A stretch of 56,017 bases of DNA from Candidatus Thorarchaeota archaeon (GCA_029855935.1 JAGSHN010000008.1:1-56017); one strand, 5' to 3'. Shown: positions 1 to 14,847, counted from the first letter of the stretch. Translations and numbers: made by a program. Notes: generated by a model not told the origin, from the letters alone.

Positions 1-2
1 AT

Positions 3-893
3 ATGGGGTCAACCAACTACCAAGATGCCTTGGAGAAGACGATTCAGCTGGTCGAACACCTCAGGGTGACGGACGGCTATGGCGACAACGTCGGCGGCGT
101 GCAGGCAGGGACCGTTCTCTTCTTCTCGGATGGGAAACCGGACTTCGGAAGGGCAAGGGAGGACTTGGTCTTCCAGATTGTGGGTCGTGGCTTCACATTC
201 CACACAATGGGCCTCGGAGGGGGCGTCGAGCCGACAACCCTGCTCTCAATGGCCGAGAACGGCGGTGGACTGTACAGGCACGCAAATACGGAGGACGAGC
301 TTCAGGAGCATCTCAATCACGTCCTGTCGTTCTCTCAGAACCTCGTCTTCTCTGCGCCCAAACTGGAGATCAACGTGATGCCAGGAGCGAGGCTCAACAA
401 CGTGTGTCTCATCGCTCCACCAAGACAGCTTGTGGACAGTATCCCCGAAGGGGGGAGCGAGACTGTGACTCTGCCCGACATTCAGGCGGGGGGAATGCTA
501 GAGATAGGATATGAGGTGTGCGTTGACAATCCCGGGAGCGAGGGCCAGACACAGGACCTCATTGAGTGGAGAATTGGTGGTGCGCCACCCACAATGACGC
601 GAGTCCGCTGGGTGTCGCTTGAAGAGGCAATGATTCAGAGGCCCAATACCAGACCCACCATTGCAATGTCAATCTATCAGGGCATGTCTGCGGTGATGAG
701 TGGAGATACTCGAAGGGCGGAGGAGATCCAGAAGCGTCTGACCAAGCTCGGCCAGACGGATCCGTTCGCAGCCACCGGGGCCACAGTGGTCAGCAAGACC
801 ATCGAGGTGGGCAAGACAGGCAACCTAGGAGAACTGTTTATGCAGGTGACCCACACACGCACGAGGCGCGACGGAGGACTGGAGGTCGAATGA
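3..893 (+). CDS. von Willebrand factor A (vWA) domain protein, probably 5'-truncated by the window edge
   Basis: GSTNYQDAL, VLFFSDG, HTMGLG and LLSMAENGGGLY match the C-terminal half of a vWA/MIDAS fold. The DxSxS motif would lie upstream of the window. Confidence 0.75.
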   Translation: MGSTNYQDALEKTIQLVEHLRVTDGYGDNVGGVQAGTVLFFSDGKPDFGRAREDLVFQIVGRGFTFHTMGLGGGVEPTTLLSMAENGGGLYRHANTEDELQEHLNHVLSFSQNLVFSAPKLEINVMPGARLNNVCLIAPPRQLVDSIPEGGSETVTLPDIQAGGMLEIGYEVCVDNPGSEGQTQDLIEWRIGGAPPTMTRVRWVSLEEAMIQRPNTRPTIAMSIYQGMSAVMSGDTRRAEEIQKRLTKLGQTDPFAATGATVVSKTIEVGKTGNLGELFMQVTHTRTRRDGGLEVE

Positions 894-894
894 A

Positions 895-2193
895 TTGGTG
901 AAATGCGAGATATGCGGACAGAAGCTGGTACCAGACGACCTGGCATTTGGCCTGTGTCCTAACTGCAACACTCCGATATCGGATGAGGCGCGGGAGAGGC
1001 TGCTCAAGGAGGCAGGGGTCGGAGGTACATCTGAGCCCCCAGAGGAAGGCAAGGGAAAGAAGCCGGCTGAACTCCCGCAGACTGCACAGTGCAAGTCATG
1101 CGGCGCAGCAATGCCTCTCGATGCATACAATGCGGGCACGCCCTGTCCCAGCTGTGGAGCAGACCCGAGGGTAGAACCGACCCCAGAGGGCTTGCAGCCC
1201 TCCGGTCCGGGGCCTCAGCCGCGGAGTTCTGGCGGAGGCGTGCAGATAGAAGGGCCAACATCGGAGGATCAACAACAGTCTGTGTCAGCGCCCGGGAGTT
1301 CCAGTGGGGGCGTGCAGGTTCCGCCTGATTCCTCTCCATCAAAAGGAGTCGAAGCGGCCGTGGAGCCTGAGGGCAAAACTCCACCCCCTGACTCGGTGGC
1401 TGTGTCCCAACCTTCAGGGCGACCCCCATCAGGTGAGGTCAATGTTGTTCTCGTCATTGGCGAGCTGGCAGGCAAGGAGATTGCATTGCCTCAAGACACA
1501 GACCTTGGGCGCGACGAGCTGGCCGCCATAGCCGGAAGCCGCTTCAAGGGTCTTGACGCGGTATCTCGCAGGCACTTCAAGTTCATCCTGACAGATGACC
1601 ACCTGTACATCACGGATCTAGGCTCAAAGAACGGTACGAGGGTCAACCAGGAGGAGCCCTGTGCGCCCAACGTGCTGAAGAGAGTCGAGATCAACGACAG
1701 GATAGTACTTGCTAATGGCGCCGTCGTCCTGAGGGTGACAGGCTACACTCAAGCAAAGGCAGCGATACCGCCACCGTACAGACTAAGAGACGAGGAGTCG
1801 GGGGTCACATACCCACTATACCTGACGAGCCCTGAGATCATTGGGAGGAGTCCCGTCCAGGGCGGGCCGCCGCATCCCTTCATTGAGGACATCTTCTATC
1901 ATATGATTGTCACAGACGGAGACAAGGAGAAGGCAAAGAACCGCATTGGTACAATCTCCCGGAAACAGCTGGAGCTGTTTTGTCCCAAGACCCCGACATC
2001 GGACTGGACGGGCGACCCGTCAGGAGGACAATACGAGCAGACGGTGAAGGTGATCAATCACTCACGGTACGGCACAATCGTGAATGGTCAGAAGCTCTCC
2101 AGCCCCGGAGACAGCGTCACAGTCCCGGTCACGTCACTCCCTATCACCATCGAGGTTGGAGCGTCCTTCAGATGGATACTCGAACGGGCCTGA
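895..2193 (+). CDS. Zn-ribbon + double FHA domain protein
   Basis: Four CxxC pairs at the N-terminus, then a Ser/Pro-rich linker. FHA1: LGR...VSRRH...DLGSKNGTRVN. FHA2: IIGRS...ISRKQ...SRYGTIVNG. TTG start 1 nt after the vWA stop. Confidence 0.85.
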   Translation: MVKCEICGQKLVPDDLAFGLCPNCNTPISDEARERLLKEAGVGGTSEPPEEGKGKKPAELPQTAQCKSCGAAMPLDAYNAGTPCPSCGADPRVEPTPEGLQPSGPGPQPRSSGGGVQIEGPTSEDQQQSVSAPGSSSGGVQVPPDSSPSKGVEAAVEPEGKTPPPDSVAVSQPSGRPPSGEVNVVLVIGELAGKEIALPQDTDLGRDELAAIAGSRFKGLDAVSRRHFKFILTDDHLYITDLGSKNGTRVNQEEPCAPNVLKRVEINDRIVLANGAVVLRVTGYTQAKAAIPPPYRLRDEESGVTYPLYLTSPEIIGRSPVQGGPPHPFIEDIFYHMIVTDGDKEKAKNRIGTISRKQLELFCPKTPTSDWTGDPSGGQYEQTVKVINHSRYGTIVNGQKLSSPGDSVTVPVTSLPITIEVGASFRWILERA

Positions 2194-2331: not shown

Positions 2332-5300
2332 ATGGAAGCGCCAAGCTATGATCTCCGAGAGGAGGATGTTGAGTCAACTCGCGCGAGGTATCCCGGTGAC
2401 AATGCCGGTGTGACGACTCTAGAGGACCCAGTGAGCAAGAAGCCACAAGTGTCAGAGCCCCCGTCCGACGAGGAGAGAAGGGGACTCGATGACGGTACTG
2501 CGGACGCAGAGCCTACTCGCAACGAAGTCGAAACGGACAACGAAGGGGATGGCTCCTCAGAGTCGGGATCCGGAGAGGCTACCCGCAAAGAGACAAGAGA
2601 GGTCGAGACAACGGGACCTCTACGGCCGGAGGAGCTTGAGGAGATTGCTGGCGGCGAGACCGTTGTTGGCGCGCGGCGCGAACTCTCTCGCGGTCCTGAG
2701 GCTGCTGACTGGACCCCGCAGCTTGGAGAGGTACCGAAGAGTCCCATCTCCGTCGTCTACGCAATAGGCGATCTCCATGGCTGGGCGCCCGCGCTGATCA
2801 CGTACCTAGTAAACAATGGGCTCGCAAAGATAGAGGTCAACGGTGTCCAGCTCTACAAGACGGGCCGGGACGGGAAGATGAGTGTTGACACGAACAAGAT
2901 GGACCTGGTCTTTCCGCATCCTCAAGAGTACTTCAAGCAGAACGGCACGTTTCCCAGAGGCGTCTTTCGGGACTTCGGTGTCGACGAGATGATTGTGCAC
3001 AATGAGGGTATTCACTCCGTGAGGGCTGAATGGGTCGCGCCCGACAACGTGGCGCTCGTGCAGATTGGCGACATCTTCGACCGTGGGGACTACAGCGAGC
3101 TTGCAACAGAGATACTCAGACAGCTCGTCATCCAGGCGCCATTCAGGGTATTTGTCCTGACTGGTAATCACGAGCAGTTCCTGCTTGAGAACGATCTTGC
3201 CACTTGGCTGATGAACGAACAGAGGTTCAGTCACCTCTCCCTCCACGGTGACAAGGCCTTCCACACCCGGTTTCACGAGAAGACCTACGGCTGGAGAGTC
3301 GCAGACGAGGACACCATCCGCCGCGAGGTCTTCGACAGATATCGTATCTCAGCAACGCTGCTCTACCTGACCCAGTACGCAGCAATGGTCAGAGCAGGAG
3401 AGGCTGCTGGTGTCAGACTGCCGTCGACAGGTCGCAACACCCTCGACCTGGACAAGATTCTCAATGGCGGGTGGGATGCCTACAGATACGCCTGGGAGAT
3501 TGCAAGCGACGGCAGGTTCTCAAAGGGAGCGACGTTCCCCGGGGCCATCGTGCTGCTCGGACTCGGTCACGCACTCTTCGTCCACGCCGACCCTCTGGCG
3601 TTCAATAAGGTGGACATCGGCGGTGTCAAGGACTCCCTCAGCAGGGTCAAACTCCCCGGAGGGACCGACCTTGTGTTCCTGTTCTACGATACGGGCTCGA
3701 AGGGTGGGCAGAGCTCGAGACACGTGTCGCTGCTCTGGTCCAGAGGGGCAGAGGAGGGATCTACTGCAGAGATTCCCCGACCACGCGCGGCGGAGGCGGC
3801 GCACAACATCATCTCGGTCTTTCCAGGGACTCGACACTACGTGCACGGTCACAGCCCCACACCGATAACGAAGACGTTTATGGGCCTCAGTCCAAACTGC
3901 CCGATCACCTACCTTGCGCGAAACGCCGACGAGATTGTCGACGCCGAGCGGGGGAGCATCCGAGTCCACGTGATTGATGAGGGCATCACACCAGTCTATC
4001 GGGCCGGCGTCGCAGATGTCTACGACCCAGCTCTGGAGCCTGTTGGCCTGAGGGTCCACCCAGACCTTGTAGGTTTTCAGGATGCAGACTCGACCAGGGT
4101 CGAGACAGACAGCTCTCACTGGTTGAGGCTCATAGATTCGACGGACTTCCCTGAGTTCACAGTACCGGAGCGTCTTGCCCTCCTTGAGCCGACGAAGATA
4201 GGACGTTTCTCTCCCGGCATGAGCGTGTGGTCTGATGAAACCGCCCACCCAGAGGACCCACGACACAGGTTCACTATGCCTTGGCCGAGGATCAAGACGA
4301 CACACAGATGGTATCATTCCTCTCCGCAGGAGCCTCTCGGGAGTACTGCGGCGTTTCTCATCTATCCGACAACAGCGAAGGGCTTCTCCCGTCCGGAGCG
4401 TCTCTATATTCTGTCGAAGAGAGTCAACGTGTCTGTGGATGAGGTGTTGTTCGACTTTGGGGTCGAGTCCACCCTCGCATGGTTGACCGACAGAGATGTG
4501 AGCCGGCCCCTTGCTCTGCCTGAGGACCAGAAGGGAGAAGACTGGTTGAAGAACATCCACAGACCGGAGAAGGTCCTGAAGGACTACCTTGGGGTGCTGA
4601 GCAATGAGGGGCCAGGTGCCCTCCTCACTCAAGTGGGGATGGTGTTTGCACTGCTCACCATTGGAAAGGATGGAAGGCTTGCCGTCTTCGTGGCAAACGG
4701 TTCCGACCGTGATATCTATGTCGGCGTACGCCACCTCAACTCGGAAGACGGAGGCGAGCGAGGAATCTTTAGAGTGGACCGGTATTCCTGGAACCTCCGC
4801 ATATCAGACAGGTCACTCGGCGAGGATCCTGCGGTCTTCCTGGCACTGGGCGACGGTGAGAGAGATCTTGACCCTCCACGTGAGATACTCAAGACCGCTC
4901 TCAGTGACCTTGCCGCCAGCGAGATAAAACGCGGGCTGCTACAGGTCAGGGGCGCAGCCTGTCTACTGTGGTTCGGTGGGCGCCTTGACCGTGTTGTCGT
5001 TCGCAGTGACACCTCCGGAATCCTCGCCAGTCCGATGGCCGAGACGATGGTACTCTCATCAAGCACACGGGAGAGGGCGTCGGCTGCCCAATCAGACTCT
5101 GCCGCGCGAACACCAGAAAAGGCTGCTGACGCCTCACGTATCGCGGACGATAGACGGCCGCTGAAGAGCCATAGGGACGTTGCGCAGGCGCACCGGCCGC
5201 AGGGTCAAGTCAGGCCGGGAGAACCACGGGCACAACCGCCACGGCGCGCAAGTCCTGAGCGCGATTCAGAGTTACAGGCTGCGCTCGCTCGTGGAAAGCA

Positions 5301-5898
5301 ACATCTGCGAGGGCCGACGGGCGGGGCGCTCCGCCACGCTCCGCCTCCACCGCTGGGTAAGAAAGGTAGTACTGGCCATGTTCCCAGCAGGGCTGTGCCG
5401 AGCGGTTCTAGTCACGACGGGCATCGGGGAAAGATGGTCTCACCGCCCAAGTCATCTCCCGGCGTGGGGGAGGCAATTGTGAGAGGGGCACGCAAGGGGG
5501 TAGGCAGAGTATTCGGGGCAATCAAGTCCATCGGAGAGGGCGGAGGAAAGGTTCAGAAGATTGTACTCAGGCTGGAGAGACCAGCCAAACGGATTCTCCC
5601 TGTCGAAATAGGAGTGACGGTAGACGCCGAAGTTCTCTCACGATTTGATGTGAGAGCTCACCACGTCGACCCGAGCACACGATTCCTGTTTCACGTGGAG
5701 CGGGGAGCGATACACATCACAAACCTCTCCGGCGAGACGATGATCGTTGATGGAAAGAAGCTCAAGACCGGAAGGTCCACTCCCGTCAAGGTCGGAACGA
5801 GGTTTGTCGTCGGCCGAGCCACGTTTAGCGTTCACACCCTACCAAAGGTGAAGGACAAAATGGGCGGAGGCGGTCGCGGTCTTGGAGGACATGGATGA
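2332..5898 (+). CDS. Calcineurin-like (PPP-family) metallophosphoesterase, multidomain, with C-terminal FHA-like domain
   Basis: GDLHG, GDIFDRG, GNHE and HGHS motifs in order. Acidic disordered N-terminus, Pro/Arg-rich linker, and a C-terminal ITNLSGETMIVDG beta domain. Confidence 0.85.
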   Translation: MEAPSYDLREEDVESTRARYPGDNAGVTTLEDPVSKKPQVSEPPSDEERRGLDDGTADAEPTRNEVETDNEGDGSSESGSGEATRKETREVETTGPLRPEELEEIAGGETVVGARRELSRGPEAADWTPQLGEVPKSPISVVYAIGDLHGWAPALITYLVNNGLAKIEVNGVQLYKTGRDGKMSVDTNKMDLVFPHPQEYFKQNGTFPRGVFRDFGVDEMIVHNEGIHSVRAEWVAPDNVALVQIGDIFDRGDYSELATEILRQLVIQAPFRVFVLTGNHEQFLLENDLATWLMNEQRFSHLSLHGDKAFHTRFHEKTYGWRVADEDTIRREVFDRYRISATLLYLTQYAAMVRAGEAAGVRLPSTGRNTLDLDKILNGGWDAYRYAWEIASDGRFSKGATFPGAIVLLGLGHALFVHADPLAFNKVDIGGVKDSLSRVKLPGGTDLVFLFYDTGSKGGQSSRHVSLLWSRGAEEGSTAEIPRPRAAEAAHNIISVFPGTRHYVHGHSPTPITKTFMGLSPNCPITYLARNADEIVDAERGSIRVHVIDEGITPVYRAGVADVYDPALEPVGLRVHPDLVGFQDADSTRVETDSSHWLRLIDSTDFPEFTVPERLALLEPTKIGRFSPGMSVWSDETAHPEDPRHRFTMPWPRIKTTHRWYHSSPQEPLGSTAAFLIYPTTAKGFSRPERLYILSKRVNVSVDEVLFDFGVESTLAWLTDRDVSRPLALPEDQKGEDWLKNIHRPEKVLKDYLGVLSNEGPGALLTQVGMVFALLTIGKDGRLAVFVANGSDRDIYVGVRHLNSEDGGERGIFRVDRYSWNLRISDRSLGEDPAVFLALGDGERDLDPPREILKTALSDLAASEIKRGLLQVRGAACLLWFGGRLDRVVVRSDTSGILASPMAETMVLSSSTRERASAAQSDSAARTPEKAADASRIADDRRPLKSHRDVAQAHRPQGQVRPGEPRAQPPRRASPERDSELQAALARGKQHLRGPTGGALRHAPPPPLGKKGSTGHVPSRAVPSGSSHDGHRGKMVSPPKSSPGVGEAIVRGARKGVGRVFGAIKSIGEGGGKVQKIVLRLERPAKRILPVEIGVTVDAEVLSRFDVRAHHVDPSTRFLFHVERGAIHITNLSGETMIVDGKKLKTGRSTPVKVGTRFVVGRATFSVHTLPKVKDKMGGGGRGLGGHG

Positions 5899-5922: not shown

Positions 5923-7215
5923 ATGATAGCGAACCGAGGACTTGTGGCCCTGAATCCGGGGGATGTCTTTGAGGACCTGGACACGGGACGGATGTTCGAA
6001 GTAGCGGAACATCTTGGCACTGGCGGGTTTGGTTCCACCTACTTTGTCACGGACAGTTCGTCAGGAGACAGGCTCGTTGCAAAGCTTCCTGTGATAACAG
6101 GTGACAAGCAGAACGACGAGTACAGAATCCGCAAGACGGAGCACGAGGGCGAGGTACTCAAGACTCTGCTCGACAACGGCGTTCCGCACGTGGTTCCCTT
6201 CAGGGGCCAGTTCGAGACCGAGATAGCAGGTCACAGGGTTCCTGTTGTGTTGATGGAAGTCGCTCGAGGGACTACCCTTGATGACTACATATTCAAAGAG
6301 CTGCAGGCACCGATGAAGGAGGACGAGGCACGAGAGCTCCTGCTGCAGCTCTGCACGGCGCTGCAGGGAGTGCACAGTCTTGGCATTGTCCATCGAGACA
6401 TCAAGCCGGACAACATATTCATCGACACTCAGCAGCCGGAGCGAGATCTCACGCTGATTGACTTTGGCATCGCCGCACTCTACGATAACTCAAAGACCTA
6501 CGACAAGGTAACGGCCGTGGGGACTCCATTCTTCTCTGCACCTGAGGGTATGTATCAAGGATTCGTGTCGTTCAGCGCGGACGTTTTCTCGGTGGGCGCG
6601 GTAGGTTTCTTCCTGTTGACCGCTCAGCAGCCCGCAGGGCTGAGAGGAGGATACGACCCGCGGCTCTACGAGCGTAAGGGCTTCCCGGTATCGGATGACA
6701 TCGCGCAGGTGATAGTGAAGGCCACGTGGGAGGACTTCAAGCTCCGCTACCCCACGATTGAGGACCTGATGAATGCCATCCGTGGAAGGCCACCGCTGCA
6801 TCTGATGCCACGGATAATAGTGGACGGCACATCCTACGCGATTGACAAGGACCTCATCATCATCGGTAGTGCTCGTGTCGGCTCAAGTGTCGACATTGCG
6901 ATTACGGAGAGAACGCAGGACGGCAAGTACTACATCTCTCGCAAGCACTGCTACATCAAGCTGTGCGACGACGGGCTCTACAGGCTCTACGATGGTTCTC
7001 CTGAGGGCCGTCCCAGCACCAATGGCACCGTCTGGTTGGACAAGCGTGGCAACTGGAGACGCATCCCAAGAGAGGGCCTTGTCCTTGGCAACTCGCCCTA
7101 TATGATCGGTCTGGGCTACTCGGAACCGAGAACGGGAACGGGCCGTGATATGTTCGGCCATGAGAGAATCCCTCGCGTGTACCGGACGATTGAGTACCGC
7201 CCACCCGGGACGTGA
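5923..7215 (+). CDS. Hanks-type Ser/Thr protein kinase with C-terminal FHA domain
   Basis: LGTGGFG, VAK, HRDIKPDN, DFG, APE and DVFSVG. FHA motifs ISRKH and STNGT. Confidence 0.93.
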   Translation: MIANRGLVALNPGDVFEDLDTGRMFEVAEHLGTGGFGSTYFVTDSSSGDRLVAKLPVITGDKQNDEYRIRKTEHEGEVLKTLLDNGVPHVVPFRGQFETEIAGHRVPVVLMEVARGTTLDDYIFKELQAPMKEDEARELLLQLCTALQGVHSLGIVHRDIKPDNIFIDTQQPERDLTLIDFGIAALYDNSKTYDKVTAVGTPFFSAPEGMYQGFVSFSADVFSVGAVGFFLLTAQQPAGLRGGYDPRLYERKGFPVSDDIAQVIVKATWEDFKLRYPTIEDLMNAIRGRPPLHLMPRIIVDGTSYAIDKDLIIIGSARVGSSVDIAITERTQDGKYYISRKHCYIKLCDDGLYRLYDGSPEGRPSTNGTVWLDKRGNWRRIPREGLVLGNSPYMIGLGYSEPRTGTGRDMFGHERIPRVYRTIEYRPPGT

Positions 7216-7253: not shown

Positions 7254-8924
7254 TCACAGCAAGGCGAGTTGACGGACCATCTCGGCCAGAGGATGATTCG
7301 GGTACCTTCGTAGCCAGTCCCCAACCTTGTTTCGCCAGCGGTCGTCAGTCTCACTCGTCACGTGTGTCACTATGATGTCTGCGAGGTCCAGCATAGGCGA
7401 GTCCTCACCTGACAGTGCAGTGTCATAGGATCTTCTTAGAATGCCCAAGATCTCGCCGGTGGCGTGAATCACGTCGGGGTGCGTCGCCCAGTCGTTGTAG
7501 ACGATCAGTGAGGACAGGGTCTCGATACGGTGGATGTTGTCGGGAGGTCGAGACCGGACAGAGTTGTGAAGGTCTTCAAGCAGCCGGACTGTCTCGGGCG
7601 GTACCTGCCCCTCCCCCCACGGCGGATTGAGAGTACGTATCAGCGACCGCAACAGTCTCCAGACGCAGGCATCTCGTGGACCGCTCTTCAGTCGCTGGTC
7701 CGCCTCAACAAGCATGGTGAGACTCAGATTGAAGGTTCTCATCGTGTGCGACTCTGGAGCAATGAGCACGGCAACGGGAAGCACCACAAGTCGCTCTCTT
7801 GGACTCAGGGATGCGACGTCGGGATATCTCGGCGAGCCAAACCAACGCCTCAATGAGGAACTCAGCGAGGTTGACGCGGCGAGCATTCTGCACAGGTCAA
7901 GGAGGGCAGGACTGTCCCCACGATCGAGCGAGTGCCCAGTGGAGTAGCAGACCGCTGGCAAAACACGTTCGAGGACATCTACGTCAGGCCTCGCGCCGTG
8001 GACCTGAAAGACCTCGTGAAGCCAGGTCACATCGGGCATTGGGTATCTCATATTGCGGTATGCCCAATCAATCGTATCGGGCGACCAGCTCTGTACGAGT
8101 CGCAGGATGTCCTCAAGGGGACGGTCCGAGAGTTGCGACGGTGCTGGCACGACCACTGCAAGAGAGGCCCGGGCGGACCACTCACTACGGGATGTCGAAC
8201 GGCTGTCAAACACGGCGTCCACGAATCTGCTCGTAGACGACTTGGCACCGTCACTACCTGGGCCCAGCCGTCTGAGCCAGGCCTCGATGATGTCAATCTG
8301 TCTGATATGCGGCAGCCTCCACACGTCAGGGGCCATCCACTCCTCCGGTAGCCGTCCAACGTGACCCTCAGAGAGTCTCCACGGTGTCTTGGAGGCTAGG
8401 AAGTCGGTGCCGAGTGTGATGAGTGCGGCGACCCACGCCAGAGGCCCCGGATGCTGCGGACCTGTGTGTCCCACCCCGGCGAACTGAATGTCTGTCGGCG
8501 TGATGTAGACCAAGGAGGGCGAGAGAGTAACAGAGCTGTCCTCAGCCGCATCGATGGCGCTCTGAAAAGAAGCAATGAACAATCTGACGATGTCCCCCGA
8601 TGGGTACCTGCCAGATGCCTGAGCGGACTGAATCACCATATCGAGGCGCTGGGCATCGTTGAGGATCAGGACCTCTGGCGGTCCGGCGAGCTTCTGAATG
8701 ACCGTAGGAAGCCCTCTCTGACCGGACTTTCTGGAGACCGCACTGGACGCGCCAACGAGGAACCGAAACCATTGCCGGCGTGTGGACGAATACAGTGCTC
8801 CGCCCCAGACATCCCTGTCCAGAGGTTCGTCAACAGCGAACCTCTCAACGCCTCCCAGGGCAGTGTCAAGAGCCCTCTTCACCTCATCCTCTGCCCTCAT
8901 CCGTCGAGAGACCTCCGTTCCCAA
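7254..8924 (-). CDS. Hypothetical protein; possible pseudokinase N-terminus plus helical C-terminus
   Basis: 556-aa ORF at the end of the minus-strand operon. RFAVDEPL...GGALY and LSPSLVYIT..DIQFAG resemble degenerate kinase subdomains I and VIb-VII. Confidence 0.6.
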   Translation of the reverse strand: MGTEVSRRMRAEDEVKRALDTALGGVERFAVDEPLDRDVWGGALYSSTRRQWFRFLVGASSAVSRKSGQRGLPTVIQKLAGPPEVLILNDAQRLDMVIQSAQASGRYPSGDIVRLFIASFQSAIDAAEDSSVTLSPSLVYITPTDIQFAGVGHTGPQHPGPLAWVAALITLGTDFLASKTPWRLSEGHVGRLPEEWMAPDVWRLPHIRQIDIIEAWLRRLGPGSDGAKSSTSRFVDAVFDSRSTSRSEWSARASLAVVVPAPSQLSDRPLEDILRLVQSWSPDTIDWAYRNMRYPMPDVTWLHEVFQVHGARPDVDVLERVLPAVCYSTGHSLDRGDSPALLDLCRMLAASTSLSSSLRRWFGSPRYPDVASLSPRERLVVLPVAVLIAPESHTMRTFNLSLTMLVEADQRLKSGPRDACVWRLLRSLIRTLNPPWGEGQVPPETVRLLEDLHNSVRSRPPDNIHRIETLSSLIVYNDWATHPDVIHATGEILGILRRSYDTALSGEDSPMLDLADIIVTHVTSETDDRWRNKVGDWLRRYPNHPLAEMVRQLALL

Positions 8925-8979: not shown

Positions 8980-11316
8980 TCATTTGTTGCCCCCATACCT
9001 ATCGCCCTCGGAATGGGCCACAACGTTCCCGTCCGGGTCAATCAGCCACCAGCGGTCCTTCTTGAGCATTCTTCTCTCGACAGCGAGGACATACCTGCCG
9101 GACTCCTCAATCCTCTCTCGAGAGGAGCTATAGAAGGAGCATTTGTCGAGCGGCAACATAGCAATCTCAGGGGTCTCGCCGTCAGGACCTGCCTGTGCCA
9201 CTGTACTCATAGCCTGTACGGAGAGACTGTAGCGAATCAGCGCAAGTGTTGATCCCTCAGCTTGCTCGAGGCGTTTCTGGTCACAACGCGGACACTTGTC
9301 TCTCCCCTCGCCCTCAGGCTGAATGAAGCGGCAGAGAGCGCAACCGTGACCCTTCAGGGACCCTCCGTATGCCTCTACATCCCACACCTCTGCACAGTCG
9401 GGACACACGGGAATCACGATTCCGAAGGGACTCTGGAAGTCCTTGTCGGGCCGTGTGCGCTGGCACAGCCAGCAGTGTCTCTGGTGGCCCTTGCAGTAGT
9501 ACGTTGTCCTCTTTCTCCTACCTGATGTGTCCTCCACCTCCAGCATCTCAGACTTCAGGTAGAACAGGTCCTTGCCAGTCTCTTCCCTGCAGAGCTCACA
9601 TCGGGCAGACAGGCTCCGCTCTGCTATCCTGCCGTCTGCAAGACGCCGGCTCTCTGTGGTGGCAATGACATCTCCTGTCACGTCGCTCTTGACCGCGTGT
9701 CTCTTGCAGAGGTACGTACCGCGCTTCGAGTGCTGCCTCATACTGCTCTTCAGATACATAGCTGGCCTACCCGACTTCGCGCACACCTCGCACTCCTCGG
9801 CGAGGTCTCTCGCAACGGTCTTCCCTGATGCAAGCTCCACGACCTCAGAGGGTGTGTATACCCGGCCCGTGACACTACAGACGGCAGTGTGCTGAGGACA
9901 TAGTGGCGCCCCGGTCAGACTGTGATGGCTCACACTGCTGGCAAGCCACCACGGGTTTGCAGCGCCGTTCTGTGCACACACAGCGCACTCGGATGCCTCT
10001 GCCCTGTAGACCCTCTTGCCCCCATTGACAACTACTGTCTCGTCGGGCTGAACGATGACGCCTGACGCCTCGCACCTGACGGCGTGATCAGGACAGAGGG
10101 GAGCATTCGTGAAGGAGTGGTGAATGACCGCATCAGGGGCAAGCCACGCGCCACACGCTGCGCACTCTATGTGACACTTGACACAATAGGTGCCGCTGCC
10201 ATAGTCGGCCTCCCGGACGCCCGAGGCGAGTGTCACCCTGCCGCAGTTCGGGCAACGGGCCAGTGTCGGAGGAGCTTCGACTGGCCGGCCAAGTTCAAGC
10301 GGGACCGTCGCGTCAAGGTCGATGTCTGCACACTTCAGACGCACGATGGCCGGGTCCTCGATGTGCCAAGCCGCCAGCACGTTGACCTTGGGGCCTCCAT
10401 CAGGGAGCTGAAAGACGAGCTCTCCTGTCACCATAGTCCTCATCCGAAGCACTACTGCTGAGTTCACGGCAATGATGGGCGGGGTGGATATCTCTCTACG
10501 GTACTCACGAATCCTGCGGTCGTGACTAGTGATTATCTCCCTAGGCTGGCCCTCCTGTTTTGCAATCCTTCTCTGCATCTGCTCTGTCCGGAGGCGGCGC
10601 AGCCGTCGTAGAAACGCTCCGTCCTTGCGCTGCGCGTCGAGTATCTTGGCCACGACAACATCGGCTGCGGTCTCGATTGCCCGTTCCACCTCCTCCAGCG
10701 ACATCCTGAGGGAGGGCTCCACCTCTTCGACCGACAGCAATGAGCCTCGCCGTCGGACGTGCGCCCTCTGAATGTCCGGGCTCCAGCTCCATCGGGTCTG
10801 ACCATTCTGGGTGACCCGTGTCACGACAACAGGGAAGACCCCTCTATTGCCACGTGACTCGTACTCCAGCCACACCTCTACCGCGCTGCACTCGGCACGT
10901 TCAGTGGGGTCATCAATCTCTATGGGAGTGGCCCCGACAGCATAGAATGGCGGTGTCAGCCAGTCAAGGAATTGACTCAGATCAATCTCATTCTCGTGCC
11001 GGTACTCAGCATAGTGGACAGGTACGTAGTCGAGCCCTCTTGTGAGGGCCTCCACTAGAGGGTGATGCATCGTGACCAACACAACGGTGGTCGATGGGTC
11101 AACAAAGGGCTCGACCACATCACGGGGGTCGAATTTCAAGAGGTATTGCCCTGCTCCCGGCAGACCGAACACTGATGCTGAGACCTCGTCCAGCACCGTC
11201 TTCAGACCCGGACCAGCCTCCTCGACCTCCACGCCCTGTTCTCGCAGGCGGGCGGAGACGAAGTCCCTGAGCTCGTCGCGCGGGTCGCGAGTGTCAAAGG
11301 GATGTGCTATTGTCAT
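8980..11316 (-). CDS. Cys/His-rich Zn-binding repeat protein; SNF2-partner (YqhG-like position)
   Basis: ATGA overlap with the helicase stop. Central coiled coil, then repeated CxxC...HH/QH...LCxxH...CxxxG units. Confidence 0.7.
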   Translation of the reverse strand: MTIAHPFDTRDPRDELRDFVSARLREQGVEVEEAGPGLKTVLDEVSASVFGLPGAGQYLLKFDPRDVVEPFVDPSTTVVLVTMHHPLVEALTRGLDYVPVHYAEYRHENEIDLSQFLDWLTPPFYAVGATPIEIDDPTERAECSAVEVWLEYESRGNRGVFPVVVTRVTQNGQTRWSWSPDIQRAHVRRRGSLLSVEEVEPSLRMSLEEVERAIETAADVVVAKILDAQRKDGAFLRRLRRLRTEQMQRRIAKQEGQPREIITSHDRRIREYRREISTPPIIAVNSAVVLRMRTMVTGELVFQLPDGGPKVNVLAAWHIEDPAIVRLKCADIDLDATVPLELGRPVEAPPTLARCPNCGRVTLASGVREADYGSGTYCVKCHIECAACGAWLAPDAVIHHSFTNAPLCPDHAVRCEASGVIVQPDETVVVNGGKRVYRAEASECAVCAQNGAANPWWLASSVSHHSLTGAPLCPQHTAVCSVTGRVYTPSEVVELASGKTVARDLAEECEVCAKSGRPAMYLKSSMRQHSKRGTYLCKRHAVKSDVTGDVIATTESRRLADGRIAERSLSARCELCREETGKDLFYLKSEMLEVEDTSGRRKRTTYYCKGHQRHCWLCQRTRPDKDFQSPFGIVIPVCPDCAEVWDVEAYGGSLKGHGCALCRFIQPEGEGRDKCPRCDQKRLEQAEGSTLALIRYSLSVQAMSTVAQAGPDGETPEIAMLPLDKCSFYSSSRERIEESGRYVLAVERRMLKKDRWWLIDPDGNVVAHSEGDRYGGNK

Positions 11317-14300
11317 CCGATGGCCACCCCCTCTGCGCCCTCTCGCTGCGCGTCCTTCTGACGTTCCTCGTCCGCCTCTGTAGGCAACACAATCTGGCGG
11401 CGAGCCTCGAGCTTCCGTGCTGCCTCCATCAGCCTCTTGAACTGGGTCCTCATCTGCTGCCTCTTTATGCGTCCCTCAAGATAGGCGTTGTACAGTTCGT
11501 CGACCTGCTTTGTGATGTCAATAGACGAGTAGAGGCTCACCAAGTCGAGCTCGCCGACTGTCTCTTGGAATAGCAGAAGGTAGTCCTTATAGGCCTCCCA
11601 GAGAGCCTTCTCCTCCTTGAGGTCGTACATAATGGTCGCGACGAAGACCATCGGATTCCTCTGTCTCAGCCGCTGAACACGGCCAATCCTCTGTTCCAGC
11701 TCTACAGGTGATCTCGGCAGGTCCATATTGATGAGGAAGTTACCGTACTGAAGATTCAGTCCACGGGACTGAGCCCGGCCGCAGACCAGGACCTCGATCT
11801 CGCCCCGATTGAACCGCCTCAGCAGGTTCTGCCGATCCATAATGCTCATCCCTGTCGTGAAGCCGTCTATCGCAACACTTGGCATTGCCCGCTTCAGGGT
11901 CTTGAGAATGGCATCGCGACCAAGATTTGTCCCTGCAAACACGATGACCGGAGAGACACCAAGACCTGCTGAGTCAACCTCCCACTCACCCATCTTGACC
12001 TTCTGCCTTGTTGTCTGATGCCTCTTGAGCACATCGATCAGTGCCCTGAGCTTCGGGTCGCTCATCATCCTGCCAGGGTCGCTGAATATCTCCTCAGTCT
12101 CCTGCAGAATGATTCTGATGGCTGACTTCACATCCTTGCTGAATCCTCGTCTGCGGAGAAGAAGGCGCAGCTGAGTCGCCGTCCGTGACTCCTTGCCCGT
12201 CTTCGTCCGTTGGTGAATGGCCAGCGCGAGTTCGTTAACCGACTGAGTGAACCAGCGGAAGAGGACCCGGCCTATACGTTGAACGTCGTCCCCCTCCGCA
12301 AGCAGTTGGCGAATGGCTCTCTCGATCCTCTTCTCGGACTTGCCAAGCTGGACGATGATGTTCTTCGCCTCCCTCTTCGGGAAGATTATGCTGGGCACAT
12401 CTGCCCGCGTATGACGAATCATCACTTGGGAGAGCAGACCGCGGAGCTGCCTGAGGTCCTGAAGGGACGCTGTTGAACCGTATCTCTTTGCGAATTCCCT
12501 GTAGTCTCCAGCAAGGATTGGGTCGATGGCTCGTATCATAGGGTAGATCTCAGATGGAGACCTCTTCATCGGTGTGGCTGTCACAAGCAGGAGATATCTC
12601 GGGTCCAGTCGGTACAGCCTCTGCCATCTACGACCCTCTGGACTTGCCCCCAGCTCGTGGGCCTCGTCAACGACGACGGCATCCCACTTTATGCGACTCG
12701 GCTCGAAGAGCTCCCACGTACTGTCGACATCTTTTGGATAGATGTCGGCATAGGCCTCAGGGATTGGACGGTCCTCAAGAGCGTGCCAGAAGGTCGCGAT
12801 GATCCGCTCGCCCTCGACAGGCCGGGGCTCGCCCGGCTCCCAGATCCTGAAGCCGCCGGGGTCATCGGGTCCGAGGTGGAACTTCTCGTCGAGCTCCGAG
12901 AGCCACTGGTACTGTAGCTCGCTGCTCGGCACAAGAATCAGAATGGAGTCAATCAGGTCACGGTAGATGAGCTCTCTCAAGATTATGCCGCACTCGATGG
13001 TCTTGCCCAGTCCCACGCTGTCAGCGATTATGCATCTGCCGTCGAGGTCCCTCAATGCTCTGAGGACGGTGTCCTCTTGATGCTCGAACGGCTTGATGTC
13101 CAGTGAATAGTAGACCTCAAGCGTTTCGAACCTGATACCAGACCTCGCAAAGGCCAGCATCGACTTTGGCGTGGGCGTCGGCGTATTGATCAGCCGCAGC
13201 CGGCCCCCTCTGACCACCCGCGGTGTCTTCGGTGCCAACAGAGGGTCGCTGGACTTGCAGATGCTCTTGTGGATCTTCCAGAGCTCATAGTTCGTTGTGG
13301 ACCAATAGCAGTTTGGACAGGTGTAGAGCATGATGTCGGATGTCGATCTGGAGCCACCACCACCATCAGTCTGGACATTGGGATGCGCCTCTGCGTAGTG
13401 AGCGTTCAGCGAACTCAGCGGCACCTCCTTCGAGCAGACGGGACAGACCGCAGTCGGGCTCTCATAGACAAGAGGAGTCAGACAGTGATAGCAGAGAGCC
13501 CAGCCCGGTGCGGTCGGCGCCCCACACTCAGGGTTGGGGCACAGTTCGTGGACCTTCTTTCGTCGTAGTCCAGCCACGGTTGCGCGTCGTATGAGCCTCG
13601 CAAAATCGCGGATCGTGGGCCTCTTCTGTGGAGGCTGTTCCCAGCAGTCCCTGCATAGTGATATGAACTCCTTTAGAGCGTGATTGGTCAGTACCCATTG
13701 CGGCCATCCCCTCTCCGGACCCGCGTTTGCGTCTCCGCGAATGTCGCCCTCCAGCACCCAGTAGAACAAAAGACCCAGGGAGAACATATCGTGCCACGGC
13801 TGAGCGGGCGTCCCGGGTACCAGCTGGTCATGGTCTGCCCAGTCCCTTGAGCCCTCGCCATGCCCCAGCTCGCCGATTCTCAGTGCTATGCCAAGGTCTA
13901 TGAGTGCGACTGTGCCGTCCTCCGCATAGAGCACGTTCCGCGGGTTGATGTCCCGATGGACGAGGCCAAGATCCACATGAAGGTGATACACAAGACCAAT
14001 GAGGCGCTGAGCGAAGTTCAGGAATCTCTCCTCGCTGTCCTCTCTGTCAAGAAACGGGTTCTCGCCGTTGCCCCGGTCCTTGAGAATGACCGACAGAGGC
14101 TGTCCCTCATAGTAGCGCCGGTAGGATGTGTATCCGCCGGGGCCGCTGTCGTCCTCGTAGACGGCGTGCTGAAAGCCGGACTTGACAATCTTGGAGAGAA
14201 TTCGATGCTCGCGACGGATGAGATCAGCATAGTCGGGACTCAGAGCACGCTTTCCGACATAGAGCCTTCCCACACTGTCGTTGAGGTCGCGGAAGAGAAC

Positions 14301-14366
14301 TATCTCTGCTTGGCCGCCGCGCGCGAGAACACGTACCTCTTGCCACCTGAACCGCCGCGCCGGCAC
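11313..14366 (-). CDS. Ser/Thr kinase - Zn fingers - SNF2/RapA(YqhH)-like helicase fusion
   Basis: Kinase motifs LARGGQA, VGK, HRDINPRN, DLG and DMFSLG. CxxC and C2H2 fingers follow. Helicase motifs ADSVGLGKT, DEAH, TATP, GLNLQ and QRIGRVQR. Confidence 0.9.
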   Translation of the reverse strand: MPARRFRWQEVRVLARGGQAEIVLFRDLNDSVGRLYVGKRALSPDYADLIRREHRILSKIVKSGFQHAVYEDDSGPGGYTSYRRYYEGQPLSVILKDRGNGENPFLDREDSEERFLNFAQRLIGLVYHLHVDLGLVHRDINPRNVLYAEDGTVALIDLGIALRIGELGHGEGSRDWADHDQLVPGTPAQPWHDMFSLGLLFYWVLEGDIRGDANAGPERGWPQWVLTNHALKEFISLCRDCWEQPPQKRPTIRDFARLIRRATVAGLRRKKVHELCPNPECGAPTAPGWALCYHCLTPLVYESPTAVCPVCSKEVPLSSLNAHYAEAHPNVQTDGGGGSRSTSDIMLYTCPNCYWSTTNYELWKIHKSICKSSDPLLAPKTPRVVRGGRLRLINTPTPTPKSMLAFARSGIRFETLEVYYSLDIKPFEHQEDTVLRALRDLDGRCIIADSVGLGKTIECGIILRELIYRDLIDSILILVPSSELQYQWLSELDEKFHLGPDDPGGFRIWEPGEPRPVEGERIIATFWHALEDRPIPEAYADIYPKDVDSTWELFEPSRIKWDAVVVDEAHELGASPEGRRWQRLYRLDPRYLLLVTATPMKRSPSEIYPMIRAIDPILAGDYREFAKRYGSTASLQDLRQLRGLLSQVMIRHTRADVPSIIFPKREAKNIIVQLGKSEKRIERAIRQLLAEGDDVQRIGRVLFRWFTQSVNELALAIHQRTKTGKESRTATQLRLLLRRRGFSKDVKSAIRIILQETEEIFSDPGRMMSDPKLRALIDVLKRHQTTRQKVKMGEWEVDSAGLGVSPVIVFAGTNLGRDAILKTLKRAMPSVAIDGFTTGMSIMDRQNLLRRFNRGEIEVLVCGRAQSRGLNLQYGNFLINMDLPRSPVELEQRIGRVQRLRQRNPMVFVATIMYDLKEEKALWEAYKDYLLLFQETVGELDLVSLYSSIDITKQVDELYNAYLEGRIKRQQMRTQFKRLMEAARKLEARRQIVLPTEADEERQKDAQREGAEGVAIG

Positions 14367-14373
14367 TGTCGAT

Positions 14374-14847
14374 TCACCCCTTTATCTTGAAGACCCACCA
14401 CGGACCGAGGAGGCCCCACAGAACCTGCCCTCGGCCTACCCCCATAGGCTCACTGCCTGCACCAGCATCAGCAACCCACTTGCCTTGGCTCGACAGGACA
14501 GCCACACCCTGACCGAGCCACCGGACATTGCCGTTCACATTCCAGACCACAAGTGCTGCGCCGTCAAATCGCAGACCGGGGTCCACCATCACGTGATCAA
14601 TATCTGCAATGTCAACGTCTTCAATGGGGAACATTCGCCCAATCCTGACGCCCCTCCCCTCACGAAGGACAAAAGAGAACGTTGCGGGCTGTCCTGGTCG
14701 AATGTCCAGAAGTGTGAGTGAGGGTGCAGCAAGCTCTCTCTGGGCCGGTGCTGCAAGACCTGAACTCGGAGGATGCAGGTCTGCCCAAGAACTCACGGTC
14801 TTTCTGAGCCGCTCGGGGTCAAGGAACTCTGTGACTTCCGCTCCCAA
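14374..14847 (-). CDS. Small FHA-like beta-sandwich protein
   Basis: VRIGR...DVDI and a beta-rich pattern, but no SxxH. Ends 7 nt before the kinase-helicase start. Confidence 0.5.
   Translation of the reverse strand: MGAEVTEFLDPERLRKTVSSWADLHPPSSGLAAPAQRELAAPSLTLLDIRPGQPATFSFVLREGRGVRIGRMFPIEDVDIADIDHVMVDPGLRFDGAALVVWNVNGNVRWLGQGVAVLSSQGKWVADAGAGSEPMGVGRGQVLWGLLGPWWVFKIKG

Follow-up and report, generated by a model that had tools for sequence, protein, structure and literature searches.

Two N-terminal Tudor-like domains autoinhibit the ATPase of RapA (HepA in E. coli) and contact RNA polymerase. RapA is an RNA polymerase recycling factor (PMC8501970). [quoted passage not shown]

Protein kinases occur in several accessory systems. 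PglW of BREX type 2 carries a pseudokinase and an active kinase (PMC12839542), and the prophage-borne kinase-kinase-phosphatase (KKP) module controls lysogeny and defence (PMC11341870). A Deinococcus operon that encodes vWA, kinase, FHA, and PP2C proteins modulates the radiation-responsive kinase RqkA (bioRxiv 10.64898/2026.01.23.701218). In Saccharolobus, ArnA and ArnB bind promoter DNA and repress DNA-damage-response genes (PMC10470591), and the pair is reported to be under the control of Hanks kinases and of PP2A, a PPP phosphatase (PMC7472852, PMC5300886). We describe here an archaeal gene cluster that has features in common with each of these systems.

Results

A kinase, zinc modules, and an SNF2 core in one protein

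The window (the whole stretch of DNA that we analysed, 56,017 nucleotides) comes from a Candidatus Thorarchaeota archaeon (GCA_029855935.1, JAGSHN010000008.1:1-56017). It contains an eight-gene cluster whose minus-strand half is a single, tightly coupled operon of four genes:

14374..14847, minus strand: beta-rich small protein of 157 aa that opens the operon, with a stop codon 7 nt ahead of the fusion's start
11313..14366, minus strand: P0001, kinase/zinc-finger/SNF2-core fusion, 1017 aa, GTG start, open ORF
13572..14366, minus strand: kinase domain of P0001, residues 1-265
13251..13553, minus strand: three zinc modules of P0001, residues 272-372 (Cys4 ribbon, C2H2-like finger, C2HC finger)
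11532..13106, minus strand: RapA-like SNF2 ATPase core of P0001, residues 421-945
8980..11316, minus strand: P0002, an N-terminal domain similar to the RapA Spacer/CTD (AF2 model, Foldseek), followed by zinc repeats and a C-terminal domain
7254..8924, minus strand: P0003, pseudokinase of 556 aa with a following helical-repeat domain (AF2 model, pLDDT 82)

A sequence-only reading of this DNA had described P0001 as a kinase with an atypical HRDINPRN catalytic loop and no APE motif, fused through zinc fingers to a complete SNF2 ATPase. The loop and the missing APE are both present in the protein. Pkinase (PF00069) matches its kinase domain over residues 112-254, scoring 47.2 bits where the cut-off is 31.7; among solved kinases, StkP, PknA, and PknB are nearest. 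Residues K39, E53, D139, N144, and D157 (in a DLG motif) are kept in every relative that covers them (seven sequences, or six for K39 and E53). The atypical loop deserves less emphasis than it had been given, since the canonical Lys persists in relatives: the catalytic-loop residue is Asn, in place of Lys, in P0001 and P0007 but Lys (HRDIKP) in the other five of the seven, and APE is found in three of seven. The HRDINPRN loop is lineage-specific, and neither the Lys-to-Asn change nor the loss of APE is a trait of the family.

The zinc fingers and the SNF2 motifs were correctly recognized. Three modules separate the kinase from the ATPase, with the ligands C276/C281/C292/C295, C308/C311/H323/H328, and C350/C353/H366/C370, and all twelve ligands are invariant across the seven relatives. 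The Pfam matches of this region are weak: the excised segment gave a double zinc ribbon at residues 279-318 (E 3.6e-5, below cut-off) and zf-C2H2 at E 0.02, and zf-Di19 also matched weakly. In the ATPase, motifs I (GLGKT), II (DEAH), III (TATP), and VI (QRIGRVQR, with its arginines) are intact and conserved. SNF2-rel_dom (PF00176; 84.3 bits, cut-off 24.9) and Helicase_C (PF00271; 55.8 bits, cut-off 23.5) match above their cut-offs, and the ResIII and DEAD models likewise match.

We considered whether the fusion could be an artefact of assembly or gene calling, or a decaying pseudogene without function. An in-frame stop in the copy at locus L003 and the loss of the catalytic-loop Lys in two of seven members would fit such an explanation. 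Against it, we found seven independent fusion sequences from different samples and assemblers (four JGI metagenomes, one NCBI MAG, and Logan runs), of which five are full-length and collinear, and the full-length relatives are 42-44% identical. The zinc ligands and ATPase motifs are invariant, the other catalytic residues of the kinase are conserved, and position D+4 is basic in both Asn variants (Arg or Lys) but in only one of the five Lys variants. We therefore regard an artefact or pseudogene as hardly credible; the caveat of misassembly attached to the sequence-only reading falls away, as the fusion recurs collinearly in independent assemblies. Its other caveat, that the architecture might be common and already characterized, also fails. 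The fusion is extremely rare, with approximately seven clusters among 1.84 billion representatives, and a literature search returned no paper describing it or its cluster.

P0001 and P0002 as a putative split helicase

Residues 443-936 of P0001 align with residues 171-635 of RapA (E 8e-23), which is the best solved-structure match of the core. The start codon of P0002 overlaps the stop codon of P0001 (ATGA). In P0002 the N-terminal domain (residues ~9-295) and the C-terminal domain flank a series of CxxC...HS...LCxxHxxxC zinc repeats. A single, template-free AF2 model built from a five-sequence alignment (pLDDT 73) gave four top Foldseek matches that were all E. coli RapA (best E 1e-4), and residues 9-295 superposed on RapA 708-968 with Z 9.5 and a high rmsd of 7.5 A over 237 aa. 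Taken together, the two matches would make the gene pair collinear with RapA 171-968.

Other searches with P0002 returned little. A profile of the N-terminal domain found no match among PDB sequences and no sequence similarity to RapA 708-968. RapA was absent from the top matches listed by a PDB search independent of Foldseek, which were trivial helical hairpins (Z <= 8.3), and an ESM-Atlas shape search gave only TM <= 0.39. A word-based search found no relatives, comparison with the ~340-aa partners of bacterial SNF2 relatives was not significant (BLASTP, hhalign), and no longer single protein joining P0001 to P0002 was found.

Because a RapA-like core is followed by an overlapping gene whose model matches RapA 708-968, we assign P0001 and P0002, on the strength of the model, as a putative split helicase of the RapA/BrxHII type in which the kinase and zinc fingers have replaced the N-terminal Tudor domains. 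We infer that the two proteins would assemble into a RapA-like motor. No N-terminal tandem Tudor-like domain is present in P0001, where residues 1-420 are the kinase and the zinc modules. The models of described families match P0001 below their cut-offs: NCBIfam RapA (NF003426) at 132.3 bits against 576, the DrmD models at 151 against 950 and 136 against 610, and DpdE at 172 against 500; the PADLOC BrxHII model matches residues 429-687 (E 7.6e-28) with a score far below its cut-off.

The SNF2 part of P0001 is RapA-like in its core but is not a complete RapA-like protein, as the C-terminal domains are, by the model, encoded by the next gene, and the comparison with stand-alone RapA/YqhH proteins overlooked both the probable two-gene split and the eight-gene setting. 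Likeness to RapA lies in the ATPase core (RapA 171-635) and the modelled domain of the next gene (708-968). Unlike RapA, the motor is divided between two genes, three zinc modules and a kinase stand in place of the Tudor-like domains, the C-terminal piece is extended by a zinc-repeat array, and the host is an archaeon. BrxHII of type 3 BREX and the BR helicases share the RapA-like plan. They differ in having a Tudor domain where P0001 has a kinase and in being unsplit, and the partners here are kinases, a phosphatase, and FHA and vWA proteins. PglZ, PglX or another methyltransferase, BrxC, and DUF499 gave no model match among the eight proteins (Pfam, PADLOC, NCBIfam).

Plasmids carry pairs of an SNF2-core gene and a coupled partner gene that lack the kinase; defence or addiction genes surround two of the three. 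The Halocatena pair lies beside REase and HNH genes, the Halapricum pair beside DUF499, DUF262, and TrlF, and the Nostoc pair beside toxin-antitoxin modules and an integrase. In Halocatena the partner can be aligned with P0002 (E 1e-5), and the CxxHxxxC repeats are common to both.

Partner genes of a proposed phosphorylation circuit

The remaining four genes of the cluster are on the plus strand:

3..893, plus strand: C-terminal 296 aa of an ArnB-like vWA protein, cut by the start of contig C3
895..2193, plus strand: two zinc ribbons followed by two FHA domains, an ArnA-like architecture (Pfam FHA E 6.7e-13, weak DZR)
2332..5898, plus strand: PPP-family (calcineurin-like) Ser/Thr phosphatase, 1188 aa (Pfam Metallophos E 1.2e-7)
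5923..7215, plus strand: canonical Hanks kinase fused to an FHA domain (Pfam Pkinase E 5.7e-35, FHA E 1.4e-4)

On the minus strand, the region of P0003 around residues 10-224 best matches the kinase-homology domain of Rv3910 (Z 11.3, rmsd 4.0 over 194 aa), and its model matches hundreds of kinases at Z>8. Substitutions have removed the HRD Asp, the catalytic Asn, and the DFG Asp in five of five orthologues, and P0003 is assigned as a pseudokinase, with the kinase fold predicted by the model and all three catalytic residues lost. The kinase-FHA protein has HRDIKPDN, DFG, and APE, and its gene is conserved in every locus that reaches that far and is duplicated in L019. The phosphatase keeps GDxHG and GNHE in four of four orthologues compared and GDxxDRG in three of four; orthologues are present in L001, L003, and L019, and the C-terminal ~700 aa match neither a Pfam model nor an Atlas feature. 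Judged by their conserved catalytic residues, both kinases, the phosphatase, and the ATPase look active.

An orthologue of the small protein lies directly upstream of the fusion in L001, L003, L017, and L019 (23-30% identity). Language-model features classed this protein as FHA-like (0.93), a lead that comparison with the cluster's own FHA proteins by hhalign did not confirm (0.2% probability).

Over the C-terminal two thirds of the 400-aa vWA proteins (Pfam VWA) that adjoin the cluster at L017 and L019, the vWA fragment shows 36-39% identity, and the L019 orthologue matches the ArnB chain 8s05_A (E 1.8e-5). The Zn-ribbon-FHA-FHA gene adjoins the vWA gene here and in L019. Its alignment contains two FHA signatures and invariant Cys pairs, and it matches ArnA weakly (8s05_C at E 8.6e-3 full length; 5a8i at E 1.2e-6 with a profile).

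These matches raise the possibility that the cluster is an accessory host regulator of the Arn kind, in which the vWA/Zn-FHA pair regulates transcription in a phosphorylation-dependent way and the RapA-like kinase-motor acts on RNA polymerase or chromatin, where it senses DNA damage or stalled transcription and signals it by phosphorylation. Both chains of the ArnA-ArnB structure 8S05 are matched, though weakly, by the vWA and Zn-FHA proteins, as is ArnE (5A8J). The Arn network of the Sulfolobales (ArnA/ArnB/PP2A/ArnC-ArnD) likewise pairs a zinc-finger-FHA gene with a vWA gene and includes a PPP phosphatase and Hanks kinases, and ArnA/ArnB act on archaellum, pili, and DNA-damage genes. The Deinococcus operon that modulates RqkA, the position of RapA as the closest solved relative of the motor (PMC8501970), and the cluster's lack of an effector nuclease fit the same explanation. 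However, generic FHA proteins outrank ArnA in a profile search with the Zn-ribbon-FHA-FHA protein, gene pairs related to the motor pair but lacking the kinase are plasmid-borne and have defence and addiction genes as neighbours, and a regulator of a core process would not be expected to occur in one of 400 genomes of the phylum, to be absent from congeners, and to have atypical GC. The cluster also differs from the Arn network in being a single cluster of sporadic rather than lineage-wide distribution, in having two FHA domains and two ribbons in its FHA protein and a phosphatase of about 1000-1190 aa, and in its link to a helicase and a pseudokinase. We consider Arn-like regulation a possible explanation, though a less probable one than the genome surveillance proposed below.

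Other kinase-bearing systems were compared with the cluster. Like the cluster, PglW, MkoA, MAD6, PD-T4-6, and Stk2-like proteins belong to accessory systems of several genes that include a Hanks kinase, which in some cases is joined to a helicase; PglW resembles the cluster in pairing a kinase with a pseudokinase, and KKP in combining two kinases with one phosphatase. The PADLOC models MkoA, mad6, PD-T4-6, and PglW match the two kinases, all far below their cut-offs. The model of MkoA (Mokosh type I) aligns only with the P0001 kinase (residues 42-263), and the MkoA helicase is of the SF1 type, whereas that of P0001 is an SF2 SNF2 enzyme. Unlike these defence proteins, the cluster has no NERD or PLD nuclease, and Pfam, PADLOC, and NCBIfam revealed no nuclease, toxin, or other obvious effector in the eight genes. 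TerY-P-type modules and Deinococcus DRA0331-0334 share the vWA, Ser/Thr kinase, FHA, and phosphatase components and push-pull regulation, but here the phosphatase is PPP rather than PP2C, the host is archaeal, and the set is joined to a motor operon.

Of the coupling that had been proposed for the fusion, the link of a DNA motor to phospho-signalling gains strong support from this context: co-inherited with the motor are the PPP phosphatase, the pseudokinase, another kinase, and FHA domains in two proteins. DNA sensing may drive phosphorylation, or the reverse.

Distribution and mobility

The same gene set is found at five independent loci (18-50% identity) with constant gene order and variable orientation, convergent or co-directional. 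The fusion is 42-50% identical between loci and the faster-evolving partner proteins 18-32%. We found no other kinase-zinc module among 400 genomes of the phylum, including four congeners and 85 genomes of the family, and no phosphatase in the same 399 other genomes. Two peptide patterns, searched against 185,579 species genomes, found SNF2-only loci and no fused form. The genome itself was confirmed as archaeal; Pfam profilin and Vps28 models matched nothing in it, nor in the control genomes. The GC content of the cluster (58.7%) lies in the top 2% of 15-kb windows (genome mean 55.7 +/- 1.6%), and contig C30 carries a decayed paralogous phosphatase fragment. The five loci have different flanks, which include genes for surface proteins, a RelA/SpoT-like protein, and a tRNA deacylase and do not consistently form defence islands. 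Synteny with congeners (65-73% DNA identity, matches scattered over contigs) is too eroded to define insertion borders. By its sequence features and distribution, the cluster looks like a horizontally acquired, accessory set of genes.

Such a set might instead be the own module of an integrated mobile element or plasmid, concerned with maintenance, replication/transcription conflicts, or exclusion of competitors rather than with host defence in the strict sense. The patchy distribution and GC deviation, the break of contig C3 inside the cluster, the prophage KKP precedent, and the SNF2-only relatives on plasmids and, at L102 and L103, directly behind an HTH_17 (excisionase-type) gene are consistent with this proposal. 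Yet we saw neither a tRNA gene nor a terminal repeat beside the cluster, in the window or at L001-L019, and no gene for an integrase, replication, or partition; phage and plasmid collections contained no fused form. We judge this explanation improbable, more so than Arn-like regulation.

Discussion

What is new here is the putative helicase split, the pseudokinase neighbour, and the conserved eight-gene block around the fusion. The interpretation that we favour, with a probability of roughly one half, is that the cluster encodes an accessory, phosphorylation-gated split DNA translocase of the RapA/BrxHII type that serves in genome surveillance, most likely against viruses or mobile DNA.

In this model, the fusion would be the motor-and-kinase subunit of a self-contained, horizontally acquired system, in which P0001 and P0002 form the motor and the kinase-zinc module takes the place of RapA's regulatory Tudor domains. 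The pseudokinase P0003 could pair with the fused kinase or serve as its substrate, by analogy with the PglW tandem. When the motor engages DNA or a transcription-complex target, the kinase would be switched on or off; the FHA and vWA proteins would recognize the resulting phospho-threonine marks in the manner of ArnA/ArnB, and the PPP phosphatase would remove them, giving a push-pull switch. Its output might be growth arrest, a change in transcription, or the removal of polymerase from invading DNA.

This reading is supported by co-inheritance, the accessory character of the cluster, the putative split RapA architecture with its BrxHII-like plan, the plasmid relatives among defence genes, the precedents for kinases in defence, and the apparent activity of the enzymes. 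Set against these are the lack of a recognizable effector, the variable flanks, the single model and high rmsd behind the RapA match of P0002, and the resemblance of the vWA/Zn-FHA pair to ArnB/ArnA, a pair that acts on host genes, including those of the DNA damage response (PMC10470591), and not against viruses.

A more specific version is offered tentatively: an undescribed archaeal immune or surveillance system whose split RapA-like motor, partnered with the pseudokinase, reports foreign DNA or stalled transcription as phospho-threonine through its own kinase. It is conceivable, at a similarly low level of confidence, that the FHA/vWA adaptors read these marks and the giant PPP phosphatase resets them in a system known mainly from Asgard-type bins. 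Equally speculative is the suggestion that the logic of eukaryotic DNA-damage checkpoints, with a kinase, FHA domains, a PP2A-type phosphatase, and an SNF2 motor, was assembled independently in a mobile operon pair.

If the favoured interpretation is correct, P0001 would be the first Swi2/Snf2 translocase with a built-in protein kinase. The cluster would connect a DNA motor directly to a complete circuit for writing, reading, and erasing phospho-threonine, all within eight genes that form a compact and transplantable system. Kinase-based and SNF2-based defence systems would gain a new class, which would be the first of them from Asgard-type archaea, and the regulation of RapA-type motors through their N-terminal domain could be studied in a natural experiment. 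Testable leads that reach beyond this genome are the split RapA architecture and the recurrence on plasmids of paired genes for an SNF2 core and a zinc-repeat partner.

The Kinase-Zinc Finger-SNF2 Fusion Is Real and Rare

The fusion gene (P0001) is an uninterrupted ORF of 1017 codons with a GTG start, at 11313-14366 on the minus strand. The sequence-only reading described its product as a protein kinase joined through zinc fingers to a SNF2 ATPase, and this architecture was confirmed by the open reading frame, by Pfam matches, by invariant zinc ligands, and by intact helicase motifs (GLGKT, DEAH, TATP, and QRIGRVQR). In Pfam, the protein kinase domain (residues 112-254) scored 47.2 bits (cut-off 31.7); the SNF2-related, ResIII/DEAD, and Helicase_C domains each exceeded their cut-offs, and a double zinc ribbon (residues 279-318) was slightly under its own. 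We used two alignments of the fusion, one of five sequences and one of seven; the 12 Cys/His residues between the kinase and the ATPase are invariant in all seven aligned sequences.

Zinc modules of the fusion
Module 1: C276, C281, C292, C295, Cys4 ribbon
Module 2: C308, C311, H323, H328, C2H2-like finger
Module 3: C350, C353, H366, C370, C2HC finger

When 5.8 billion clusters were searched through a word index, four relatives proved to contain both domains; three of these are full-length or almost so (42-43% identity). An exhaustive HMMER search of 1.84 billion representatives yielded P0007, P0062, and P0063 as full-length relatives, as well as an N-terminal half, two partial C-terminal sequences, and a short fragment; the remaining matches were all SNF2-only, at no more than 196 bits. 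These relatives, drawn from separate JGI metagenomes, an NCBI MAG, and Logan assemblies, align collinearly with the fusion across its junctions. Because relatives from such diverse assemblies share these junctions, chimeric assembly is excluded, and we regard an artefactual origin of the fusion as extremely improbable. Nor is the architecture a common, characterized one, as relatives are few among the 1.84 billion representatives and the literature searched held no relevant description of kinase-SNF2 fusions or of this gene set. We conclude that this is a genuine and rare fusion, not described before.

One relative, P0008, is encoded as a 597 aa protein followed by a 356 aa Helicase_C gene (L003:10020-10330). 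This split was ruled out as a natural two-gene form of the fusion, as it arises where one in-frame stop codon stands in for a conserved Tyr (...DPVNL*PLI...), whether through nonsense mutation or through an error in sequencing.

The Fused Kinase Is Predicted to Be Active

The HRDINPRN catalytic loop and the missing APE motif are present in the window protein as first described. K39 (β3 Lys), E53 (αC Glu), D139 (HRD Asp), N144 (catalytic Asn), and D157 (the DFG-equivalent Asp, in a DLG motif) are kept in every member of the seven-sequence alignment that covers the position. The catalytic-loop Lys is found in five of the seven sequences, and Asn takes its place solely in the window protein and P0007. 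Both Asn forms carry a basic residue at Asp+4 (Arg and Lys), whereas only one of the five Lys forms does; in this small sample, the combination recalls the HRDLAARN loop of tyrosine kinases. An APE motif occurs in three of the seven. Given these frequencies of Lys and APE, the atypical loop is a lineage variant and not a defining feature, and the kinase otherwise looks active from its conserved residues. Among kinases of solved structure, bacterial StkP, PknA, and PknB are the closest.

A RapA-like Helicase Is Probably Divided between the Fusion and P0002

Two further genes follow the fusion on the same strand.

Genes following the fusion
8980-11316, minus strand: P0002, 778 aa
7254-8924, minus strand: P0003, 556 aa

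Fusion residues 443-936 align in sequence with E. coli RapA 171-635 (E 8e-23), and NCBIfam models for RapA, DpdE, and DrmD and PADLOC models for DrmD, BrxH, and DpdE all match the fusion far under their curated cut-offs. The fusion and P0002 overlap, with stop and start codon sharing the sequence ATGA. P0002 has no match in Pfam, NCBIfam, or PADLOC, and no sequence similarity to RapA was found. A template-free AF2 model of P0002 (pLDDT 73 overall and 75-93 at residues 10-590) returned E. coli RapA entries at ranks 1-4 in Foldseek (best E 1e-4, probability 1.0). VIA-align placed P0002 residues 9-295 on RapA 708-968 with Z 9.5 over 237 residues, at a high rmsd (7.5 Å) and with a model built on a shallow alignment; the next-best matches spanned no more than 84 residues. 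A structure search independent of Foldseek returned helical hairpins alone.

As P0001 matches RapA 171-635 and P0002 matches RapA 708-968, the pair is collinear with RapA 171-968. RapA, BrxHII, and the helicases of DUF499 "BR" defense systems share a C-terminal α+β domain (PMC12839542), and the modeled β-sheet of P0002, with its long coiled-coil insert, fits that description. The alignment of P0001 and the model of P0002 thus suggest that one helicase is probably split over the two proteins.

After the RapA-like domain, P0002 contains four tandem units of the form CxxC...HS...LCxxHxxxC (about 60 aa each, residues 351-680), with further zinc ribbons on both flanks. The repeats are modeled at pLDDT 85-93 and match no Pfam family. 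Orthologs of P0002 range from 778 to 959 aa.

P0003 Is a Pseudokinase

The first 220 residues of P0003 adopt a protein-kinase fold in a confident model (pLDDT 82). The best match was the kinase-homology domain of M. tuberculosis Rv3910 (Z 11.3, rmsd 4.0 Å, 194 aa), and 370 of Foldseek's 998 best chains (mostly protein kinases) exceeded Z 8. The HRD Asp, catalytic Asn, and DFG Asp are substituted in all five orthologs. A kinase fold with substituted catalytic residues indicates that P0003 begins with a pseudokinase domain, after which comes a helical domain.

Just upstream of the fusion, at a distance of 7 nt, lies the gene of a β-rich 157 aa protein, which holds the same position in every locus. 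Language-model features suggest an FHA domain, for which profile comparison gave no support.

A Convergent Operon Encodes Phospho-Signaling Proteins

A second group of four genes is convergent with the fusion operon.

Genes of the second operon
1-893, plus strand: vWA gene (3′ part), cut by the start of the contig
895-2193, plus strand: Zn-FHA protein with two zinc ribbons and two FHA domains
2332-5898, plus strand: PPP phosphatase, 1188 aa, with GDxHG, GDxxDRG, and GNHE intact
5923-7215, plus strand: kinase-FHA fusion with a canonical kinase

About 110 N-terminal codons of the vWA gene are missing from the contig, and a search of the rest of the assembly did not recover them; strain-level variation in an accessory region may account for the break.

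The vWA and Zn-FHA proteins weakly match the two chains of PDB 8S05, identified by its depositors as the ArnA-ArnB complex of Sulfolobus acidocaldarius. In a profile search with the Zn-FHA protein, generic FHA proteins outscored ArnA. We therefore term the pair ArnA/ArnB-like in architecture rather than orthologous. This resemblance is one ground for the main rival reading, in which the genes would act as an accessory regulator of the Arn type, controlling transcription or the DNA-damage response. RapA acts at RNA polymerase, a Deinococcus vWA-kinase-FHA-PP2C operon offers a parallel, and the cluster contains no recognizable nuclease or toxin. We consider such a regulator possible, if somewhat unlikely.

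The Eight Genes Form an Accessory Unit

The same eight gene types occur in the same order around P0007 (L001 and L002), P0008 (L003), P0062 (L017), and P0063 (L019). The vWA gene is complete in L017 and L019; in L019 every gene points the same way and there are two copies of the kinase-FHA gene. Pairwise identity is 42-50% for the fusion, compared with 18-32% for P0002, P0003, and the small protein.

The source genome carries an archaeal SSU rRNA (1167 bits), and the source MAGs of P0063 and P0008 are labeled Promethearchaeota and Thermoproteota/Korarchaeota, respectively. Neither the kinase-Zn part nor the phosphatase was found in any other of 400 genomes of the phylum, a set that includes 4 congeners, 85 members of the family, and 90 genomes of high quality, and a scan of 185,579 species genomes found no further carrier. 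The GC content of the cluster (58.7%) lies in the top 2% of 15 kb windows of the genome. On another contig of the assembly (C30, bases 76-606), a fragment with in-frame stops and without a long ORF is 57% identical to phosphatase residues 604-780 and resembles what is left of a decayed second copy of the system. The patchy distribution, GC content, decayed fragment, in-frame stop in L003, and identities indicate that the unit is accessory, moves horizontally, and is both acquired and lost. A selfish mobile-element function for this unit seems improbable to us.

On the contig of the relative P0006 (Logan SRR28370465), NERD and Mrr_cat/NA-iREase1 genes lie upstream of the fusion on the opposite strand, with one 125 aa gene between; it is the only orthologous locus with recognizable defense-type neighbors. 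Downstream in the window, 19129-21174 and 25454-28207 encode a secreted Exo_endo_phos nuclease-like protein (lamin-tail, Ig, fn3) and NosD/beta-helix surface proteins, and L003 likewise encodes a NosD/beta-helix protein close to its cluster (L003:1014-3473).

Kinase-less Relatives Circulate on Plasmids

The closest SNF2-only relatives (27-30% identity, 570-830 aa) each precede a coupled gene, whose product of 340-680 aa matches no family.

SNF2-partner pairs
L101:8001-10885
L102:8001-11512
L104:3649-6665
L115:6998-10873
L116:6031-8935
L117:4074-6843

The partners in L101, L102, L104, L115, and L116 end in or run into Cys-rich zinc ribbons. Some pairs lie on contigs of bacterial type, others on plasmids of haloarchaea and cyanobacteria. 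The Halocatena plasmid pair adjoins a restriction endonuclease and an HNH nuclease, the Halapricum pair adjoins DUF499, DUF262, and TrlF-like genes, and the Nostoc pair lies amid toxin-antitoxin genes and an integrase; on two of the three plasmids the module sits amid defense or addiction genes. In a single comparison, the Halocatena partner aligned with P0002 residues 122-567 (E 1e-5), with which it shares CxxHxxxC repeats, and the Halapricum partner is a clear homolog of the Halocatena partner (E 5e-23). The plasmid pairs show that a two-gene module of SNF2 core plus partner circulates on mobile DNA; it looks like an independent module that has yet to be named, and it may be where the fusion system came from. 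Only in the rare fusion family have a kinase-Zn head and phospho-signaling genes been added to it.

A Role in Conflict Is Favored

The anatomy, catalytic-residue conservation, co-inheritance, and accessory distribution of these genes are observations; beyond them, we infer a mechanism in which the kinase would occupy the regulatory N-terminal position of a split RapA/BrxHII-type motor and the pseudokinase P0003 would work with it. The resulting phospho-marks would be read by the FHA and vWA proteins and erased by the PPP phosphatase.

We favor a conflict role, against viruses or mobile DNA, with a probability of roughly one-half. It is favored by the distribution of the unit, by the faster evolution of its nonenzymatic parts, and by the occurrence of the kinase-less relatives on plasmids and in defense contexts. 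The same helicase plan has been published for BREX type 3 and BR systems, and PglW, Mokosh, MADS, and KKP provide kinase precedents, including a pseudokinase-kinase pair.

The general proposal that a DNA motor is coupled to phosphorylation, in either direction, gains support from this context. To it our analysis adds, above all, the probable split RapA architecture, the P0003 pseudokinase, and a delineation of all eight genes of the system together with its plasmid relatives that lack a kinase.
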